NCBI RefSeq assembly: GCF_046105845.1
Contig: NZ_CP151004.1
Direction: 5' to 3' (one strand)
Length of the DNA: 64,000 bases
Source: Escherichia coli
GTDB lineage: Bacteria; Pseudomonadota; Gammaproteobacteria; Enterobacterales; Enterobacteriaceae
Positions within the stretch are counted from its first letter, which is position 1; each line of letters starts with the position of its first letter. The position numbers were made by a program, and so were the translations under genes. This document shows, piece after piece, positions 1-64,000 of the stretch. Under the pieces are notes generated by a model. It searched no databases and had not been told where the DNA came from. It saw only the letters and a program-made list of their open reading frames with translations.

Positions 1-621
1 AAACCACTCTTCCCAGCCAGTAATACGGGTACTTTGATGCAGAAGTGGTAACTCTGTAAGCAGTTCTGCCACTGACAGTTTTTGATCGGACATTGTAAGC
101 AAACTGCCGCTGCATACCGGCAAAATCTCCTCTTCAAAGAGATATTCTACTTCCGCCCAGGGCGCGCAAAAATTTTCGCGCATAATGACAGCATCGTACT
201 CCCGATTAAGAAAATCGCCGTTATTAGCTAAAGAGTGAATATTAACAATAATATCGGAATGTAACTTTGTGAATTCATGTAAATTTGGGATTAACCAGTG
301 GGTACTAAACGTAGGATTCACGGCAAGTTCAATAACCTTAACCGTAGGCTGCCAGGTCATAATGGTATTGGTATCGCGTTCCAGCTTATTTAATGTTTCT
401 TTTACTATCCCCAGGTAATACTTCCCTGCATCATTAAGAAAAATACGTTTTTTAGAGTGTGAAAATAACGGAGTATGTAAAAATTCCTCCAGCGCACTCA
501 CTTGTCTGAATACTGCACTTTGGGTCAACGCTAACTCCTCTGCCGCTCTGGTATAACTTTCATGACGTGCGACGACCTCAAAAGTCACCAGCAGCTCCGT
601 TTTAGGTATTTTTCCTCGCAT
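1..621 (-). CDS. LysR-family transcriptional regulator, 3'-truncated by the window edge (about 207 N-terminal residues present)
   Basis: Not in the ORF track because it is incomplete. Reverse-strand ATG at 619-621 opens a frame translating MRGKIPKTELLVTFEVVARHESYTRAAEELALTQSAVFRQVSALEEFL..., with a typical LysR N-terminal winged-HTH followed by a co-inducer-domain-like region. Family assignment by eye. Confidence 0.7.
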   Translation of the reverse strand, partial: MRGKIPKTELLVTFEVVARHESYTRAAEELALTQSAVFRQVSALEEFLHTPLFSHSKKRIFLNDAGKYYLGIVKETLNKLERDTNTIMTWQPTVKVIELAVNPTFSTHWLIPNLHEFTKLHSDIIVNIHSLANNGDFLNREYDAVIMRENFCAPWAEVEYLFEEEILPVCSGSLLTMSDQKLSVAELLTELPLLHQSTRITGWEEWF

Positions 622-1185
622 AATGCCGTCCCTTAAAAATAGTTTAAACCATCAAAAATACATTACTTATTACGAAGTAATGGTAACCAAAGCAGCAATA
701 AATAATTTATAAGAATCATGATTGACATTTATAACCCAGTAAGCCTGGCGTGACAAATATCTTAATCAGATAATAATAATCCGAAAAGCACAGCGCCTTT
801 CGAATTATCCGGAATCACATTAAGTGAAAATTATTAAATTGATATCATTTATCATATCTGTGGATATTATGATAAACAATCAACAAAGATTTTATTTTTG
901 ATTTATAGCATATCCCTCTAAGAATTTTTGCGATGCTGCAATATCCGGGGTAAAGACCCGATCCTGGCTGACAAATGGCACGACTTGACGATAAGCGGTG
1001 AACATCGCTTTTGTTGATTTACTTAACGCTACGGTCAAACGCTGGGAAGCCAGTGCATCAGGTAACGATTCGAAATTCGCCGTCGTTCTTATTCGTGGCT
1101 TGCGGTCGGTTGCGGCAATCCACAGTGGCTGTGGTCATGCAGTCAAGCCAGCGGTCAGATTTCGACCGTGGTTAACATTTAAGGC

Positions 1186-1211
1186 ATAAAAAAGGCCATC
1201 ATATGATGGCC
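1186..1211 (-). terminator. Rho-independent terminator downstream of sucD
   Basis: Perfect hairpin GGCCATCATATGATGGCC (1194-1211) followed on the minus strand by a U-run (A-run 1188-1193 on plus). Confidence 0.75.
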
Positions 1212-1286
1212 AACCATGTCGAAACCGACAGCCCTTCGCCATTCCTGTAGAGGGAAGCGGCGAGGGCTATTTCTTATTACAGATAT
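1186..1286 (-). ncRNA. sdhX: Candidate SdhX (RybD) sRNA, the sucD 3'UTR ending at the sucD terminator
   Basis: Positional: in E. coli the sucD 3'UTR is processed into the sRNA SdhX. The interval between the sucD stop and the terminator is about 100 nt. Sequence identity was not checked. Confidence 0.45.
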
Positions 1287-2156
1287 TTATTTCAGAACAG
1301 TTTTCAGTGCTTCACCGATATCCGCCAGGCTGCGAACGGTTTTCACGCCTGCGGCTTCCAGAGCAGCGAATTTCTCATCCGCAGTCCCTTTCCCACCGGC
1401 AATGATCGCACCCGCGTGGCCCATACGTTTGCCTTTCGGCGCAGTCACACCAGCGATGTAACCCACAACAGGCTTGGTAACGTGCTCTTTGATGTACGCA
1501 GCCGCTTCTTCTTCAGCGCTACCGCCGATCTCACCGATCATCACGATCGCTTCGGTCTGCGGATCTTTTTCGAACATTTCGAGGATGTCGATAAAGTTAG
1601 AGCCAGGGATCGGGTCGCCGCCGATACCGACACAGGTCGACTGACCGAAACCGTAATCCGTGGTCTGTTTAACCGCTTCATAGGTCAGTGTACCGGAACG
1701 GGAAACGATACCCACTTTACCCGGTTTGTGAATGTGACCCGGCTGGATACCGATTTTGCATTCACCCGGAGTGATTACGCCCGGACAGTTCGGGCCGATC
1801 ATACGAACGCCTGCTTCATCCAGTTTCACTTTCACGGTCAGCATATCCAGCGTCGGGATGCCTTCAGTGATGGTGATAATCAGTTTGATGCCTGCATCGA
1901 TGGCTTCCAGAATGGAGTCTTTGCAGAACGGTGCTGGTACGTAGATAACAGAAGCGGTAGCGCCAGTAGCAGCAACAGCTTCACGAACGGTGTTGAACAC
2001 CGGCAGGCCGAGGTGGGTGGTGCCGCCTTTACCTGGGGTTACGCCGCCAACCATTTTAGTGCCGTATGCAATAGCCTGTTCTGAGTGGAAAGTCCCCTGG
2101 CTACCGGTAAAGCCCTGGCAGATAACCTTGGTGTTTTTATCAATTAAAATGGACAT
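1287..2156 (-). CDS. sucD: Succinyl-CoA synthetase alpha subunit
   Basis: 289-aa [48 protein letters not shown]...; CoA-binding and phospho-His region recognisable. Its start overlaps the sucC stop. Confidence 0.97.
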
Positions 2157-3322
2157 TATTTCCCCTCCACTGCGGCAACAACCTGCTGAGCTGCATCCGT
2201 CAGACCTTTTGCTGCAATAATATTCAGGCCGCTGTCAGCCAGTTTCTTCGCGCCGAGTTCGGCGTTGTTACCTTCCAGACGTACCACGACCGGTACGTTA
2301 ACACCCACTTCCGCTACCGCGCCGATGATACCGTCAGCGATCAGGTCGCAACGAACGATACCGCCGAAGATGTTAACCAGAACGGCTTTCACTTTGTCGT
2401 CAGAGAGGATGATTTTGAACGCTTCGGTTACACGTTCTTTGGTTGCGCCGCCGCCAACGTCAAGGAAGTTAGCTGGTTCGCCGCCGTGCAGTTTAACGAT
2501 GTCCATCGTACCCATCGCCAGACCTGCGCCGTTAACCATACAACCGATGTTACCGTCCAGCGCAACGTAGTTCAGTTCCCACTGTGCAGCCTGTGCTTCA
2601 CGTGGATCTTCCTGCGACTGGTCACGCATTTCGCGCAGATCAGGCTGGCGGAACAGTGCGTTGCCATCAGCGCCCAGTTTGCCGTCGAGGCAAATCAGAT
2701 CGCCCTGTTTGGTGATGACCAGCGGGTTGATTTCGATCAGCGCCAGGTCGCGCTCCAGGAAAATGGTCGCCAGGCCCATGAAGATTTTGGTGAACTGCTG
2801 AACCAGTTTACCTTCCAGACCCAGTTTGAACGCCAGCTCGCGTCCCTGATACGGCATCGGGCCAGTCAGCGGATCAAGCGCAACTTTGTGGATCAGGTGC
2901 GGAGTTTCTTCCGCCACTTTTTCGATTTCCACGCCGCCTTCGGTGGAGGCCATAAAGACCACACGACGGGAACTACGGTCAACAACGGCACCGAGATACA
3001 GCTCTTTAGCGATATCGGTCGCTGCTTCAACCAGAATCTGGTTAACCGGTTGGCCATTGGCATCTGTTTGATACGTTACCAGACGCTTGCCCAGCCAGTT
3101 TTCTGCAAAAGCACGGATGTCTTCTTTGCTGTTTACAACTTTCACACCGCCCGCTTTACCGCGGCCACCAGCGTGAACCTGACATTTCACTACCCACGGA
3201 CCGGCACCGATTTTTGAAGCGGCTTCTTCTGCTTCGCGCGGAGTAGTACAGGCATAACCCACCGGTGCTGGTAAGCCATAGCGGGCAAAAAGTTGTTTTG
3301 CCTGATATTCATGTAAGTTCAT
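2156..3322 (-). CDS. sucC: Succinyl-CoA synthetase beta subunit
   Basis: 388-aa [42 protein letters not shown]... (ATP-grasp). Confidence 0.97.
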
Positions 3323-59659: not shown

Positions 59660-61201
59660 ATGGCTTTTGCCTCATTAATTGAACGCCAGCGCATTCGCCT
59701 GCTGCTGGCGTTATTATTCGGTGCCTGCGGAACGCTGGCCTTCTCTCCTTACGATGTCTGGCCTGCGGCGATTATTTCGCTGATGGGGCTTCAGGCGCTG
59801 ACCTTTAACCGCCGTCCACTCCAGTCTGCCGCTATTGGCTTTTGCTGGGGATTTGGCCTCTTTGGCAGCGGTATTAACTGGGTCTATGTCAGCATCGCGA
59901 CTTTTGGCGGAATGCCTGGCCCGGTTAACATCTTCCTGGTGGTGCTGCTGGCGGCGTATTTGTCGCTGTATACCGGACTGTTTGCTGGCGTGCTGTCGCG
60001 CCTGTGGCCGAAAACCACCTGGCTGCGCGTGGCGATTGCCGCCCCTGCTCTCTGGCAAGTGACCGAGTTTCTGCGCGGTTGGGTGCTGACTGGTTTCCCG
60101 TGGTTACAGTTCGGCTATAGCCAGATTGATGGCCCGTTAAAAGGGCTGGCACCAATAATGGGCGTGGAAGCCATTAACTTCCTGCTAATGATGGTTAGCG
60201 GCCTGCTGGCACTGGCGTTGGTCAAACGCAACTGGCGTCCGCTGGCGGTGGCCGTCGTGCTGTTCGCCCTTCCCTTCCCGCTGCGTTACATCCAGTGGTT
60301 TACCCCGCAACCGGAGAAAACCATTCAGGTTTCGATGGTTCAGGGCGATATTCCGCAATCACTGAAATGGGACGGAGACCAGCTTCTTAATACGCTGAAG
60401 ATTTACTACAACGCAACGGCACCGCTGATGGGCAAATCATCGTTGATTATCTGGCCGGAGTCGGCGATAACCGATCTGGAAATTAATCAGCAACCGTTCC
60501 TCAAAGCACTGGACGGTGAGTTGCGCGATAAAGGTAGCTCGCTGGTAACCGGGATTGTTGACGCGCGTCTCAATAAGCAGAACCGCTACGATACTTACAA
60601 CACCATCATCACGCTGGGGAAAGGTGCGCCGTACAGCTACGAATCAGCCGATCGCTATAACAAAAACCATCTGGTGCCGTTTGGCGAGTTTGTCCCGCTG
60701 GAGTCGATTCTGCGTCCGTTAGCGCCGTTCTTTGATCTGCCGATGTCGTCGTTCAGCCGTGGGCCATATATCCAGCCACCGCTGTCGGTAAACGGTATTG
60801 AGCTTACTGCGGCTATTTGCTACGAGATCATTCTCGGCGAGCAAGTGCGTGATAACTTCCGCCCGGATACCGATTATCTGCTGACTATCTCCAACGATGC
60901 ATGGTTTGGTAAGTCTATTGGTCCATGGCAGCACTTCCAGATGGCGCGAATGCGTGCGCTGGAGTTGGCGCGCCCGCTACTGCGTAGCACCAACAACGGC
61001 ATTACGGCGGTGATTGGTCCGCAGGGTGAGATTCAGGCGATGATCCCGCAATTCACCCGCGAGGTGTTAACCACTAACGTGACGCCGACTACCGGACTTA
61101 CACCGTACGCACGTACCGGCAACTGGCCTCTGTGGGTGCTGACGGCACTGTTTGGTTTTGCTGCTGTGCTGATGAGTCTGCGTCAGCGACGTAAACGTTG
61201 A
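59660..61201 (+). CDS. lnt: Apolipoprotein N-acyltransferase
   Basis: 513-aa [50 protein letters not shown]...; C-terminal nitrilase-like domain. Confidence 0.96.
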
Positions 61202-61305
61202 GGTGAATGATGCGCTGGCCTGCAAAATTGCATCATTTTTGCAGGCCAGATAAACCGTTAACACCGCATCCGGTATCAACAAAACATACTTTCTCATTAA
61301 GCGGT

Positions 61306-61332
61306 GGGGCGTGATTATCATGCCCCTTTTTT
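61306..61332 (+). terminator. Rho-independent terminator of lnt, abutting the stop codon of the convergent rhomboid gene
   Basis: GGGGC-gtgattatcat-GCCCC followed by TTTTTT; ends 1 nt before the minus-strand stop at 61334. Confidence 0.65.
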
Positions 61333-61333
61333 C

Positions 61334-63211
61334 TTACGGTTCAGGGATACAAGCCACATTGCCATATTGGGGATGACGAATAATTGCCTGCGGATCAAGC
61401 GAGCGCGTCCTGTCCAGTTGGATTAACCCGTTCTTCGCCATAACAAATATTTTTCTACCATCCGCTGAAAAACGAAGGTGATTAACGTAGCTGGCAGGAT
61501 AAACGCCAATAATCTGCCCGGCATTAATATTGAGCTGGATGACATAACCTTGCAGGCCATATGACACCAACGCTAAATATTGACCGTCCGGGCTAATACC
61601 CTCAACGGAATAAACGCTCCTGCTACACCATTGCGTCATAATACTGGCTTGTTGATCCTCAGCTCTTATACGTGAAATCCCCTGGCTATCGGCAAAAATA
61701 ATCTCTCCATTTTTTGGTCGGAATCCCATCGCAGAAACGACACCACGCGCATCACCTGCGGGAAAGTCTTCTTTCTGATGCGTGATGGTATTGATGCGTA
61801 CAATGTCACCTCTGACCATACCGGGTATCAACAATGTTTTTTCATCCGGGGAAAGTGCCATAACCCAGGCACCAGGTTTATTACTCGTCCCCGTCCCGTC
61901 GTATTTCTCCAGCGGGATATCCGCCACATGCTGATAAGTCACCAGATCAATGGCTGACACACTATTACTGGTGCGATTCATCACCCAAGCTTTTGTGCCA
62001 TCACGCGAGAGGATAAGACTGTCAGGATGTGCACCGGTGGTAATCGACTGAATAATCTCCCCCGTCGCCACGTTAATGACCGATAACGCATTCGCTTCAA
62101 ATGAAGTCGCATAAAGCAACGTTTCATCCGGGCTTAGCGCCAGCGATCTGACGCCCTGATCTTTACAGCCACCACAATGTTTGACTGACTTTTCTTTCGC
62201 TATGGGGGCTGTAAAGGTATGCAGGATTTTCTTTTGTCCGAGGTCGAAAACAACAATGCTGTTGGTGTTTTCAATTGCGGCATACAACGTATTACCATCC
62301 CGACTGATCGCCATATCATGGATATCGGAAATCTCAGCGAGCAAATCACCACTGGCCTGTTCACGACTTACCGGAGCGGATAATGTTTCCCTGAGGGCGT
62401 TGCGTTCCTCCGCTAACTGCTGCTTTTTTTGCCGTCGCTCTTGTTCAATCTCCTGTGGATAAAACTCTTCACGCAGGCTTTGCCTGACTTGTAAAACTGA
62501 CTCACCCATCTGCTGCTGCGCAAGCCAGATAGCCCCGGTCAGAAGAAGACTACCCGCAACAATAATCCCGCCTTCCGTAACAAGCCGGTTTTGCCCATAT
62601 AAACGCGCACTCAGCCCCCCCATCGCGCCACCCGCAATCAGGCCGCCAATGTGGCAAGCGTTATCTATTCCTGTTTGCCGGGCACCGTACAACAGTGTCA
62701 GCGCCACCATACCCAGCAGAGGAAATACTCGCCGCTGGTTTTTATGGTGTGTGCCCGCACCTGAAGCAAGCTGTGTTGCTATCGCAGCGCCAGCTATTCC
62801 CATAATCGCCCCGGATGCCCCAACGCTGATGACTATCTGCTCACTTTCGCGTAACGCATAACAGGCACTGATTAGCCCACCAAAGACGCCGGAGAATAAC
62901 CAGATAATCAGAAGTCGCCATTTCCCCAGTATCCGCTCCGCCACTGCCCCCACCACCAGAAGTGCAAACATATTCATCAGCAAATGGGGAAAACTACTGT
63001 GCAGAAAGACACTGCTCAATAAGCGCCAGGATTCGCCCGACAACGTGAGAGAAGTAACGTTAGCACCGAGATGGATGAGTGCGGATTGATCGACTTCTTC
63101 ATAACTCATCCATTGTGCGAGGTAACAAAATATCCCAACACAGAGCGCAAAAAGGATAAGGGTTATTGCGGGTAATTGAACATTTAACGGCTTAACCGAA
63201 GATGCAGACAT
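61334..63211 (-). CDS. Rhomboid-family intramembrane serine protease fused to a C-terminal seven-bladed YVTN/YncE-like beta-propeller domain (625 aa)
   Basis: N-terminal part: seven hydrophobic segments, L1-loop WR (res 62-63), TM2 H-x4-H-x3-N (HSSFPHLLMN), TM4 GASGA (Ser133) and TM6 ACHIGGLIAG (His187), i.e. a complete rhomboid catalytic signature. C-terminal part (res ~300-625): seven repeats of the form SxDGxxLYV.N..SNsVSVID. RBS AAGGAAGAAA upstream. Family assignment by eye. Confidence 0.85.
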   Translation of the reverse strand: MSASSVKPLNVQLPAITLILFALCVGIFCYLAQWMSYEEVDQSALIHLGANVTSLTLSGESWRLLSSVFLHSSFPHLLMNMFALLVVGAVAERILGKWRLLIIWLFSGVFGGLISACYALRESEQIVISVGASGAIMGIAGAAIATQLASGAGTHHKNQRRVFPLLGMVALTLLYGARQTGIDNACHIGGLIAGGAMGGLSARLYGQNRLVTEGGIIVAGSLLLTGAIWLAQQQMGESVLQVRQSLREEFYPQEIEQERRQKKQQLAEERNALRETLSAPVSREQASGDLLAEISDIHDMAISRDGNTLYAAIENTNSIVVFDLGQKKILHTFTAPIAKEKSVKHCGGCKDQGVRSLALSPDETLLYATSFEANALSVINVATGEIIQSITTGAHPDSLILSRDGTKAWVMNRTSNSVSAIDLVTYQHVADIPLEKYDGTGTSNKPGAWVMALSPDEKTLLIPGMVRGDIVRINTITHQKEDFPAGDARGVVSAMGFRPKNGEIIFADSQGISRIRAEDQQASIMTQWCSRSVYSVEGISPDGQYLALVSYGLQGYVIQLNINAGQIIGVYPASYVNHLRFSADGRKIFVMAKNGLIQLDRTRSLDPQAIIRHPQYGNVACIPEP

Positions 63212-63368
63212 AAGGTGTTTCTTCCTTGAAAAGACAGGTAAAAAGCATTTTTCCCGTGTGCAGTTATCATCCCGGCAAACGTCCCATGCCGAAAAGATAA
63301 CTCTGTCCGAAATATGACTTTTTCAGCCTAAAATTACAATCGTAATTAATTCATCCCTAAGTATTTTT

Positions 63369-63384
63369 TGGCATGTAAGTTGCT
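63369..63384 (+). promoter_or_regulatory. Candidate sigma54 promoter upstream of gltI
   Basis: TGGCATGTAAGTTGCT: the GG and GC dinucleotides are spaced exactly as in the -24/-12 consensus TGGCAC-N5-TTGCW. Confidence 0.5.
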
Positions 63385-63665
63385 TTATTTACTGTGTAAG
63401 CAATGAAATCAGCCGCGACGCAACCGGGTTGCACCACCACAAATCAGCGGTAGCACCAAAAAGGTGCAGTTTAAGAATTTTGCTTCGGAATGGTGCGGCG
63501 CAACTCGCAAAAACAAACAATAAAACAGCAATATCTTTACATTTAGCCAAACTAAATGTTACCTAACAGGCACAACACTGCACAATAAAGTTGCAGACGA
63601 TAACAACACAAACACTCACAACGGGTATCCATGCGTTCTTAACGCAGAAGATAAAGGAGTTGGAT

Positions 63666-64000
63666 ATGCAATTACGTAAACCTGCCACAGCAATCCTGGC
63701 CCTGGCGCTTTCCGCAGGACTGGCACAGGCAGATGACGCCGCCCCGGCAGCGGGCAGTACGCTGGACAAAATCGCCAAAAACGGTGTGATTGTCGTCGGT
63801 CACCGTGAATCTTCAGTACCTTTCTCTTATTACGACAATCAGCAAAAAGTGGTGGGTTACTCGCAGGATTACTCCAACGCCATTGTTGAAGCAGTGAAAA
63901 AGAAACTCAACAAACCAGACTTGCAGGTGAAACTGATTCCGATCACCTCACAAAACCGTATTCCACTGCTGCAAAACGGCACTTTCGATTTTGAATGTGG
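63666..64000 (+). CDS. gltI: Glutamate/aspartate ABC transporter periplasmic binding protein, 3'-truncated by the window edge
   Basis: ATG at 63666 with AGGAG RBS; MQLRKPATAILALALSAGLAQADDAAPAAGSTLDKIAKNGVIVVGHRESSVPFSYYDNQQKVVGYSQDYSNAIVEAVKKKL...; signal peptide present. Confidence 0.92.
   Translation, partial: MQLRKPATAILALALSAGLAQADDAAPAAGSTLDKIAKNGVIVVGHRESSVPFSYYDNQQKVVGYSQDYSNAIVEAVKKKLNKPDLQVKLIPITSQNRIPLLQNGTFDFEC

Follow-up and report, generated by a model that had tools for sequence, protein, structure and literature searches.

The gene at positions 61334 to 63211 of the window (the whole 64,000-nucleotide stretch of Escherichia coli DNA analysed here) is, judged by its sequence, the E. 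coli ortholog of Shigella sonnei Rhom7 (SSON_0610, UniProt Q3Z4D6) and as such is already known. Taken as a whole, the data are best explained by E. coli Rhom7 being an inner-membrane rhomboid serine protease of the 6+1 TM type with a periplasmic propeller, a reading to which we assign a probability of about 0.9. The identity of the C-terminal domain as a YVTN propeller is an addition to the published account of Rhom7: the 2020 paper names this region only 'C-terminal domain' (PMC7232013), and none of the papers found in our literature search states the propeller identity.

Identity with S. sonnei Rhom7

Rhom7 was characterised in S. sonnei by Liu et al. (2020, EMBO J; PMC7232013). The window protein is 93% identical to the NCBI S. 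sonnei Rhom7 protein, and 89% identical to the machine-read published Rhom7_Ss sequence despite OCR drop-outs; OCR errors aside, the NCBI protein and the published sequence are the same. The E. coli and S. sonnei proteins have in common the length of 625 aa, the Ser133/His187 numbering and the layout of seven TM helices followed by a C-terminal domain, and the gene order gltI-rhom7-lnt was also seen in an S. sonnei assembly. They differ in ~7% of their amino acids, a divergence from which no functional difference is expected, and the spacer between lnt and rhom7 in the window contains an inserted hairpin of 54 bp. RefSeq labels the window gene 'rhomboid family intramembrane serine protease', and Rhom7 is listed in rhomboid reviews.

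The published work showed that S. sonnei Rhom7 is an active protease whose activity is abolished by S133A or H187A (PMC7232013). The enzyme cleaves a TatA-based model substrate within its TM segment, and TM7 together with the C-terminal domain is dispensable for this cleavage. When overexpressed, it cuts the TM segments of HybA and HybO, as well as FdnH when the latter is an orphan, that is, when its partner FdnI is missing. Cleavage requires a helix-destabilising proline in the TM segment of the substrate and licenses further degradation. In S. sonnei, cleavage of HybA and FdnH by chromosomal Rhom7 is undetectable and became visible only when the enzyme was expressed from a plasmid; no phenotype was seen in the double mutant (PMC7232013). 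By analogy with this 93%-identical ortholog, the window protein is predicted to be proteolytically active. The novelty implied by an earlier note on this DNA did not survive the comparison, as the ortholog was tested in 2020 and the gene is therefore already characterised, though not universally present; the Ser133 and His187 alanine mutants that the note proposed were published in the same year, along with substrates (PMC7232013).

The rhom7 gene and its surroundings

The gene and the signals at its two ends are as follows.
61334..63211, minus strand: rhom7 coding sequence, 625 codons with an ATG start and a TAA stop at 61334-61336 (ORF list)
63221..63227, minus strand: Shine-Dalgarno sequence AAGGAAG, read from the sequence, ending 9 nt before the rhom7 ATG
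61306..61336, plus strand: GC-rich hairpin and T-run between the convergent lnt and rhom7 genes (pattern scan only)

The coordinates confirmed that rhom7, on the minus strand, is convergent with lnt (59660..61201, plus strand), and it is divergent from gltI, whose ATG lies at 63667 on the plus strand. The ribosome binding site of its own that had been claimed for the gene was likewise found, 9 nt 5' of the ATG. The hairpin and T-run at 61306..61336 are probably the terminator of lnt, and the T-run overlaps the stop codon of rhom7. The GC content of rhom7 is 49.5%, compared with 51.9% for the window. A promoter scan found no sigma-70-like promoter upstream of rhom7 on the strand of the gene, which is weakly consistent with low rhom7 expression, and an Rfam scan of the rhom7 locus gave no matches. 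The gene is monocistronic and probably weakly expressed.

The rhomboid core

The catalytic part of the protein maps as follows.
62597..63211, minus strand: rhomboid catalytic core, residues 1-205 (TM1-TM6), from the Pfam match and model helices
62813..62815, minus strand: codon TCC of the catalytic Ser133, within GASG, read from the sequence
62651..62653, minus strand: codon CAC of the catalytic His187, read from the sequence

A profile search assigned the N-terminal half of the protein to the rhomboid family, with Pfam Rhomboid PF01694 matching residues 59-199 (62615-63037) at an E value of 1.4e-27 and 97 bits. The complete rhomboid core described in the earlier note (WR, H-x4-H-x3-N, GxSG with Ser133, and His187) was recovered with every motif at its claimed position: WR at residues 62-63, HSSFPHLLMN at 71-80 (H71/H76/N80) and GASG at 131-134. 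Alignment of 16 homologs, down to 26% identity, demonstrated that W62, R63, H76, N80, G131-A132-S133-G134 and H187 are invariant and that H71 is conserved in at least 90%. In the AlphaFold2 model the core contains helices at residues 15-34, 74-95, 97-122, 132-149, 152-178 and 184-203, with Ser133 at the start of helix 132-149 and His187 inside helix 184-203. By profile and motifs, the E. coli copy of Rhom7 is a rhomboid intramembrane serine protease (PF01694, MEROPS S54).

The seventh helix, the linker and topology

Beyond the core, two further segments lead to the C-terminal domain.
62513..62587, minus strand: seventh TM helix, residues 209-233, from a hydropathy peak at 210-232 and a model helix at 209-233
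62348..62512, minus strand: charged helical linker, residues 234-288, from composition and model helices 237-250 and 253-276

Hydropathy and the model thus agree on the seventh TM helix that had been proposed, and Phobius also predicted seven TMDs for Rhom7 (PMC7232013). The predicted cytoplasmic loops hold 2-3 K/R each and the predicted periplasmic loops 0-1. TM7 is predicted to cross the inner membrane and so bring the C-terminal part into the periplasm, and the topology check suggested in the earlier note, with seven TM-length helices modelled, likewise predicts a periplasmic propeller. The linker had been described as coiled-coil-like; the two model helices show only that it is helical. 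Residues 232-300 comprise 9 K/R and 14 D/E, and the linker ends in a conserved PVS-x-E-x-A-x-G that leads into the first propeller strand; V281, A286 and G288 of the linker are invariant among the aligned homologs.

The C-terminal domain is a predicted seven-bladed propeller

61337..62347, minus strand: seven-bladed YVTN-type beta-propeller, residues 289-625, from TIGR02276, PDB 1L0Q and the AlphaFold2 model

Searched with HMMs, the C-terminal half matched the NCBIfam YVTN repeat TIGR02276 in two stretches, above the cutoff (58.3 bits against 27.85). A phmmer search of the PDB returned 1L0Q, an archaeal YVTN propeller, as its best match, in three stretches with an E value of 1.1e-24. In Foldseek, too, 1L0Q ranked first among PDB entries (E 2.4e-16), ahead of further propellers with seven blades. 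The AlphaFold2 model, with a mean pLDDT of 81.3, consists of seven TM-length helices, two linker helices and 28 strands; its pTM is 0.58, so that how the domains are placed relative to one another should not be relied on. The 28 strands make up seven four-stranded blades over residues 289-600, and the N-terminal strand 289-292 completes the last blade. Together these data predict that residues 289-625 form a closed seven-bladed propeller. Of the earlier description as seven YVTN-type repeats the propeller stood, but canonical repeats are recognisable by sequence in only 2-3 of the seven blades, and it is the model that gives the count of seven.

Two cysteine pairs, C346/C349 and C529/C621, are conserved in the C-terminal domain, the former being lost jointly in Klebsiella aerogenes; judged from the alignment, both pairs would fit a periplasmic location. 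A search of representative genomes with the C-terminal domain was swamped by giant multi-repeat YVTN proteins and gave no useful stand-alone relatives.

Distribution and evolution of rhom7

The survey of the lnt-gltI gene that the earlier note called for showed that rhom7 is an accessory gene: of 5426 complete E. coli genomes, 3232 contain it over at least 80% of its length and 2189 (~40%) lack it. The sampled K-12-type and O157:H7 genomes are without rhom7; the earlier note was right that K-12 lacks this gene and right to set it apart from GlpG and YncE. Twenty-three of 24 sampled E. coli copies are annotated as a single uninterrupted gene, and one sampled copy is interrupted by IS1. The window allele is rare: over the gene, a DNA identity of 99% is attained in just one of the 5426 genomes, and the second-best genome has 96.6%.

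Comparison by blastn of the empty site with the window defined the segment that is specific to rhom7-carrying genomes.
61196..63420, no strand: rhom7-specific segment of 2225 bp relative to K-12-type genomes

Homology stops at 61195 and restarts at 63421, and in the K-12-type empty site 155 bp of unrelated sequence lie between lnt and the gltI upstream region. The lnt-gltI locus also holds rhom7 in E. whittamii and in the contig of a protein named as E. fergusonii, and in Klebsiella it holds a homolog of about 50-57% identity. This Klebsiella copy suggests that rhom7 is probably ancestral at lnt-gltI in the Escherichia/Klebsiella lineage and was lost repeatedly in E. coli; its loss from ~40% of E. 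coli genomes indicates that the gene is dispensable. A recent horizontal insertion was rejected, given the synteny with Klebsiella at this level of identity and a GC content near the genome average. The whole architecture of rhomboid plus propeller is kept by the Klebsiella copy at lnt-gltI and recurs in Budvicia and Paraburkholderia, elsewhere in the genome. A genome scan for the C-terminal domain, made with two peptide patterns from 5 enterobacterial sequences and not a complete taxonomic survey, yielded four loci, in E. whittamii, Escherichia sp. MOD1-EC7003 and two MAG contigs. These two contigs look like E. coli contamination.

Among E. coli alleles, dN/dS is 0.16-0.28 (~0.2) in both the rhomboid and the propeller parts, and the propeller is thus under purifying selection as strong as that on the protease core.

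Possible roles of the propeller

The seventh helix would place a helical stalk and a disulfide-stabilised seven-bladed propeller in the periplasm. There, the most likely task of the propeller would be to dock a substrate or partner by its folded periplasmic part, setting specificity or regulation and not catalysis. In its full form our proposal is tentative and we hold it at clearly less than even: the propeller may be the specificity or regulation module of Rhom7, recognising a folded periplasmic domain of the native substrate or an envelope signal; the Rhom7-type enzymes of Escherichia, Klebsiella, Budvicia and Paraburkholderia may form a distinct class of receptor-coupled rhomboids; and the true substrates may be other than HybA and FdnH, which were found by overexpression. 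The dispensability of the C-terminal domain for the sole substrate tested gives no positive support to a function of the propeller, and no gene pointing to a substrate was found to be common to the neighbourhoods of the distant homologs. Alternatively, the propeller could be a sensor or an autoinhibitory gate through which a periplasmic small molecule or envelope signal switches the protease on, in which case Rhom7 would serve in the signal-regulated cleavage of one particular envelope protein and not in a general quality control of orphan subunits. A gated enzyme would fit the lack of detectable activity of chromosomal Rhom7 on its known substrates in laboratory conditions (PMC7232013); related propeller folds bind ligands and proteins, and both the core-like selection on the propeller and the conservation of the architecture from Escherichia to Budvicia and Paraburkholderia are in line with such a role. 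However, plasmid-expressed full-length Rhom7 is active without added signal and removal of the C-terminal domain is reported only to leave activity intact (PMC7232013), which argues against strong autoinhibition, and no conserved neighbour gene hints at a signalling partner. We consider a gate of this kind rather unlikely.

That rhom7 is a dispensable remnant in the course of being lost from E. coli, an intact ORF without current function, seems to us very improbable. The gene is missing from many genomes, including the sampled K-12-type and O157:H7 ones, IS1 interrupts one sampled copy, and in S. sonnei the mutant is without phenotype and the native activity very low (PMC7232013). Yet 3232 genomes keep at least 80% of the gene, nearly all sampled copies are uninterrupted, dN/dS is ~0.2 in every domain, the catalytic residues are invariant and Klebsiella retains the gene at the same locus. 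The C-terminal domain could also be an enzyme, a lactonase- or quinoprotein-like propeller that would make the protein bifunctional, since the lactonase, PQQ-associated and hydrazine synthase beta propeller families of Pfam and NCBIfam match it weakly. All of these matches fall far under the family cutoffs (for instance 52 bits against 287, and 42 against 560) and are confined to two or three canonical YVTN blades, which indicates similarity of fold and repeat, and 1L0Q, which matches best, is a surface-layer module and not an enzyme. We therefore rejected this explanation, whose probability we regard as minimal.

Significance

The discovery value of the gene itself is small, as it is annotated in RefSeq, covered by reviews and functionally tested in Shigella. 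The analysis adds the nature of the outer domain, a YVTN propeller carried by a helical stalk, as well as its two conserved Cys pairs and core-like purifying selection. For work on Rhom7 it offers the hypothesis of propeller docking or regulation together with construct boundaries, and the presence/absence polymorphism (E. coli B with rhom7, K-12 without) provides natural test backgrounds.

Comparison with known systems

Providencia stuartii AarA is likewise a rhomboid of the 6+1 TM type, with ~30% identity over the membrane part (PMC7232013). AarA processes TatA, whose TM segment Rhom7 cuts as a model substrate, but AarA has 281 aa and ends shortly past TM7, without linker or propeller. GlpG of E. 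coli and Haemophilus influenzae shares the catalytic fold and the Ser-His dyad; among rhomboids of solved structure, GlpG of H. influenzae comes closest to the window protein (phmmer against the PDB, E 1.2e-9), and HybA is a common substrate of GlpG and Rhom7 in S. sonnei (PMC7232013). GlpG differs in having six TM helices and an N-terminal cytoplasmic domain, and the window protein misses the GlpG equivalogs TIGR04239 and NF008155 (41.8 bits against 250, and 37 against 335). Membership of the rhombosortases was also rejected (TIGR03902, 46.6 bits against a cutoff of 84).

The seven-bladed YVTN-class propeller is shared with 1L0Q, a surface-layer protein of Methanosarcina mazei, and with E. 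coli YncE, but neither of these modules, soluble or surface-located, is joined to a protease. The window protein is not a member of the YncE family (NF052280, 34 bits against a cutoff of 400; Pfam YNCE-like, E 3.8e-4 over 69 residues). The next-nearest relatives of the core are of the Bacillus subtilis YqgP/GluP type, with identities of 33-44% across 25-45% of the query. According to citations in other papers, YqgP additionally carries an N-terminal domain in the cytosol and works together with FtsH on MgtE. Enzymes of this type also combine a rhomboid core with a seventh TM helix and an extracytoplasmic repeat domain, but outside the membrane they carry TPR repeats, whereas the outer domain of Rhom7 is a predicted beta-propeller.

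Rhom7 identity and the lnt-gltI locus

The gene lies between lnt and gltI and has its own ribosome-binding sequence, with the following arrangement:

61334..63211, minus strand: rhom7 open reading frame (ATG start, 625 codons, TAA stop)
59660..61201, plus strand: lnt, convergent with rhom7
ATG at 63667, plus strand: gltI, divergent from rhom7
ending 9 nt before the rhom7 ATG, minus strand: Shine-Dalgarno sequence AAGGAAG

A Pfam search assigned residues 59-199 of the product to the Rhomboid family (E 1.4e-27). The catalytic motifs, WR (62-63), HSSFPHLLMN (71-80), GASG (131-134, with Ser133) and His187, stand exactly where the earlier note had placed them, and every sequence-defined feature of the family is present. 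The closest rhomboid in the PDB is Haemophilus influenzae GlpG (E 1.2e-9); no solved structure of Rhom7 was found in the PDB copy searched. The GlpG and rhombosortase equivalogs were also tried, and the protein reached neither assignment.

Liu et al. (EMBO J 2020; PMC7232013) gave Shigella sonnei SSON_0610 the name Rhom7 and reported a C-terminal domain, seven predicted TMDs, and Ser133 and His187 as catalytic residues. An S. sonnei protein in NCBI, P0027, shares 93% identity with the window protein. The machine-read copy of the 625-residue sequence printed in Figure EV1 of PMC7232013, although OCR had cost it 14 residues, shares 89% with the window protein end to end. P0027 and the printed sequence agree, save for OCR drop-outs and transpositions. 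Around P0027, an S. sonnei assembly has the gene order of the window, gltLKJI - rhom7 - lnt - corC - ybeY - ybeZ. In addition, NCBI already records the exact window protein for E. coli under the name "rhomboid family intramembrane serine protease". Its 90%-identity cluster comprises 8814 sequences, of which the named ones belong to E. coli, Shigella flexneri and E. fergusonii, and a 2025 review lists Rhom7 as UniProt Q3Z4D6. Identity, length, residue numbering and synteny all place the protein in the Rhom7 orthogroup. Because sequence identity, the P0027 match, the shared gene order and the database records agree, the window gene is an ortholog of the named and experimentally studied Rhom7. 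The rhomboid-propeller protein is therefore already known: the earlier note, which implied novelty, had read motifs, domains and locus accurately and re-described Rhom7 without recognising it.

Relative to other rhom7-positive E. coli (e.g. the L010 locus), the lnt-rhom7 spacer carries a 54-bp insertion (61205-61258) containing a perfect hairpin, GGCCTGCAAAA...TTTTGCAGGCC. The window lnt encodes 513 rather than 512 amino acids, owing to this insertion and a 3-bp indel just upstream, at the lnt 3' end. Many rhom7-positive genomes in a spread sample match the region as two pieces with 98% coverage, consistent with their being without the insertion.

The C-terminal domain is predicted to be a seven-bladed propeller

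The YVTN repeat model TIGR02276 matches the C-terminal half with 58.3 bits, above the curated cutoff of 27.85, and the solved YVTN propeller of a Methanosarcina mazei surface-layer protein (1L0Q) matches it with E 1.1e-24, placing this half in the YVTN repeat family. The YncE equivalog was tested and not reached. An AlphaFold2 model built from 16 homologs (mean pLDDT 81.3, pTM 0.58) has seven membrane-length helices (15-34, 74-95, 97-122, 132-149, 152-178, 184-203 and 209-233), two linker helices (237-250 and 253-276) and 28 beta-strands forming seven four-stranded blades (289-600), the first strand (289-292) closing the last blade. A Foldseek search of the PDB placed 1L0Q at the top (E 2.4e-16), ahead of hydrazine synthase beta and G-protein beta subunits, all seven-bladed. 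The overall combination of rhomboid core and C-terminal propeller is thus confirmed with two caveats: the seven blades appear in the predicted model, but only two or three are recognisable as YVTN repeats from sequence; and the linker, described as charged and coiled-coil-like, is helical in the model, but a coiled coil is not demonstrated.

The word "propeller" is absent from PMC7232013 and from a 2025 rhomboid review, and the literature searched contained no paper linking a bacterial rhomboid to YVTN or propeller repeats, although certain automated database names do make the link, e.g. "YVTN family beta-propeller protein" for a Klebsiella oxytoca ortholog. The model and fold matches are evidence for a seven-bladed YVTN propeller as the C-terminal domain of Rhom7, which we add to the published account.

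Predicted cytoplasmic loops (TM2-3, TM4-5, TM6-7) contain 2-3 K/R residues and periplasmic loops 0-1. The core is homologous to GlpG, whose TM6 has a cytoplasmic end in GlpG structures. Four cysteines of the C-terminal domain (C346, C349, C529 and C621) are conserved down to 26-32% identity, with C346 and C349 jointly absent from Klebsiella aerogenes orthologs, and would fit the pattern expected of two disulfides. Since these lines agree, we infer that the seventh helix carries stalk and propeller into the periplasm.

Published activity, proposed mechanism and alternatives

Rhom7 cuts a TatA-TMD model substrate, and cleavage is abolished by S133A and by H187A, the mutants that the earlier note had suggested; deletion of the C-terminal domain, alone or with TM7, does not abolish it (PMC7232013). 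Substrates were looked for by screening 44 candidate TMDs, not by trapping: plasmid-expressed Rhom7 cut those of HybA, HybO and FdnH, while full-length FdnH was cleaved only without its partner FdnI (PMC7232013). Cleavage needs a conserved proline of the substrate TMD and licenses further degradation of the substrate; cleavage by chromosomal Rhom7 was undetectable, and a glpG rhom7 double mutant had no phenotype in growth, respiration, stress or secretion (PMC7232013). The role proposed was quality control of orphan respiratory-complex subunits (PMC7232013).

The S. sonnei ortholog has thus been shown to make a Ser133- and His187-dependent intramembrane cut in type I/III TM segments with a helix-breaking proline, to prefer orphan subunits, and not to need its C-terminal domain for catalysis on a model substrate. 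The helical stalk would present a putatively disulfide-bonded propeller in the periplasm, and the propeller may serve as a docking site for the folded, periplasmic portion of a substrate or partner, or sense a signal, thereby conferring specificity or regulation.

That Rhom7 is a protease gated by such a signal is conceivable but rather unlikely, as the full-length enzyme works when overexpressed, a point against strong autoinhibition. That the gene is decaying and without function is very improbable. Among six Escherichia alleles, with near-identical pairs left aside, residues 1-232 have a dN/dS of 0.19-0.27 and residues 291-625 one of 0.16-0.28; by this sequence measure, conservation of the predicted propeller is as strong as that of the protease part. 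Both these values and conservation in Klebsiella speak against decay. That the propeller is itself an enzyme, for which only sub-threshold, repeat-level family matches speak, we regard as scarcely credible.

Distribution and history of rhom7

Of 5426 complete E. coli genomes, 3232 carry rhom7 at a coverage of 80% or more, in every case as one chromosomal copy except for one plasmid fragment. E. coli B carries it; sampled K-12-type and O157:H7 genomes lack it, and empty-site genomes have 155 bp of unrelated sequence in place of window 61196-63420. K-12-type strains additionally have IS5 at this site. One rhom7-positive genome has IS1 within the gene, which is annotated there as two pieces, "rhomboid" and "beta-propeller fold lactonase family protein".

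In Klebsiella aerogenes, and on a contig whose protein clusters with a Klebsiella sp. entry, an ortholog of ~50-57% identity lies between gltI and lnt, oriented as in the window. Orthologs are also found at this locus in E. whittamii, in Escherichia sp. MOD1-EC7003 and on the contig of P0008, the ortholog that NCBI names E. fergusonii. Because of these syntenic orthologs, rhom7 is probably old at this locus and repeatedly lost. We reject a recent insertion in view of these orthologs and of the gene's GC content, 49.5% where the window has 51.9%.

The window allele is rare: among the 5426 genomes only strain AST215 (Japan) matches it at 99.0% DNA identity. Of the other matches listed in the spread sample, the best stands at 96.6% and the majority at 94-96%. 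Between pairs of alleles dS is 0.06-0.22, which seems high within one species. Codons 1-290 are identical between E. coli VL46 and 89-3156, and their propeller parts differ by 18 nonsynonymous and 25 synonymous changes, a mosaic pattern that indicates intragenic recombination. The P0008 allele differs from E. coli alleles by dS 0.11-0.22, no more than these among themselves, which suggests interspecies exchange or a mislabelled strain. Two short contigs with rhom7 and the lnt end (93% protein identity to the window), from MAGs labelled "Proteobacteria bacterium" and "Collinsella sp.", look like mis-binned E. coli contigs.

Distant relatives and their architectures

At 5166-10010 of L008, a JGI metagenome contig with a 27%-identity homolog, the rhomboid-propeller gene lies 13 bp downstream of a gene for a 940-aa TPR protein on the same strand. 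Genes for a sigma-54 response regulator and a histidine kinase lie upstream of both, and the arrangement could be an operon. Enterobacterial loci show no equivalent of this arrangement. Budvicia aquatica and Paraburkholderia share the rhomboid-TM7-propeller architecture with Rhom7 at ~26-32% identity, in unrelated neighbourhoods, whereas the next-nearest rhomboid cores carry TPR domains in place of the propeller, as in the GluP/YqgP type.
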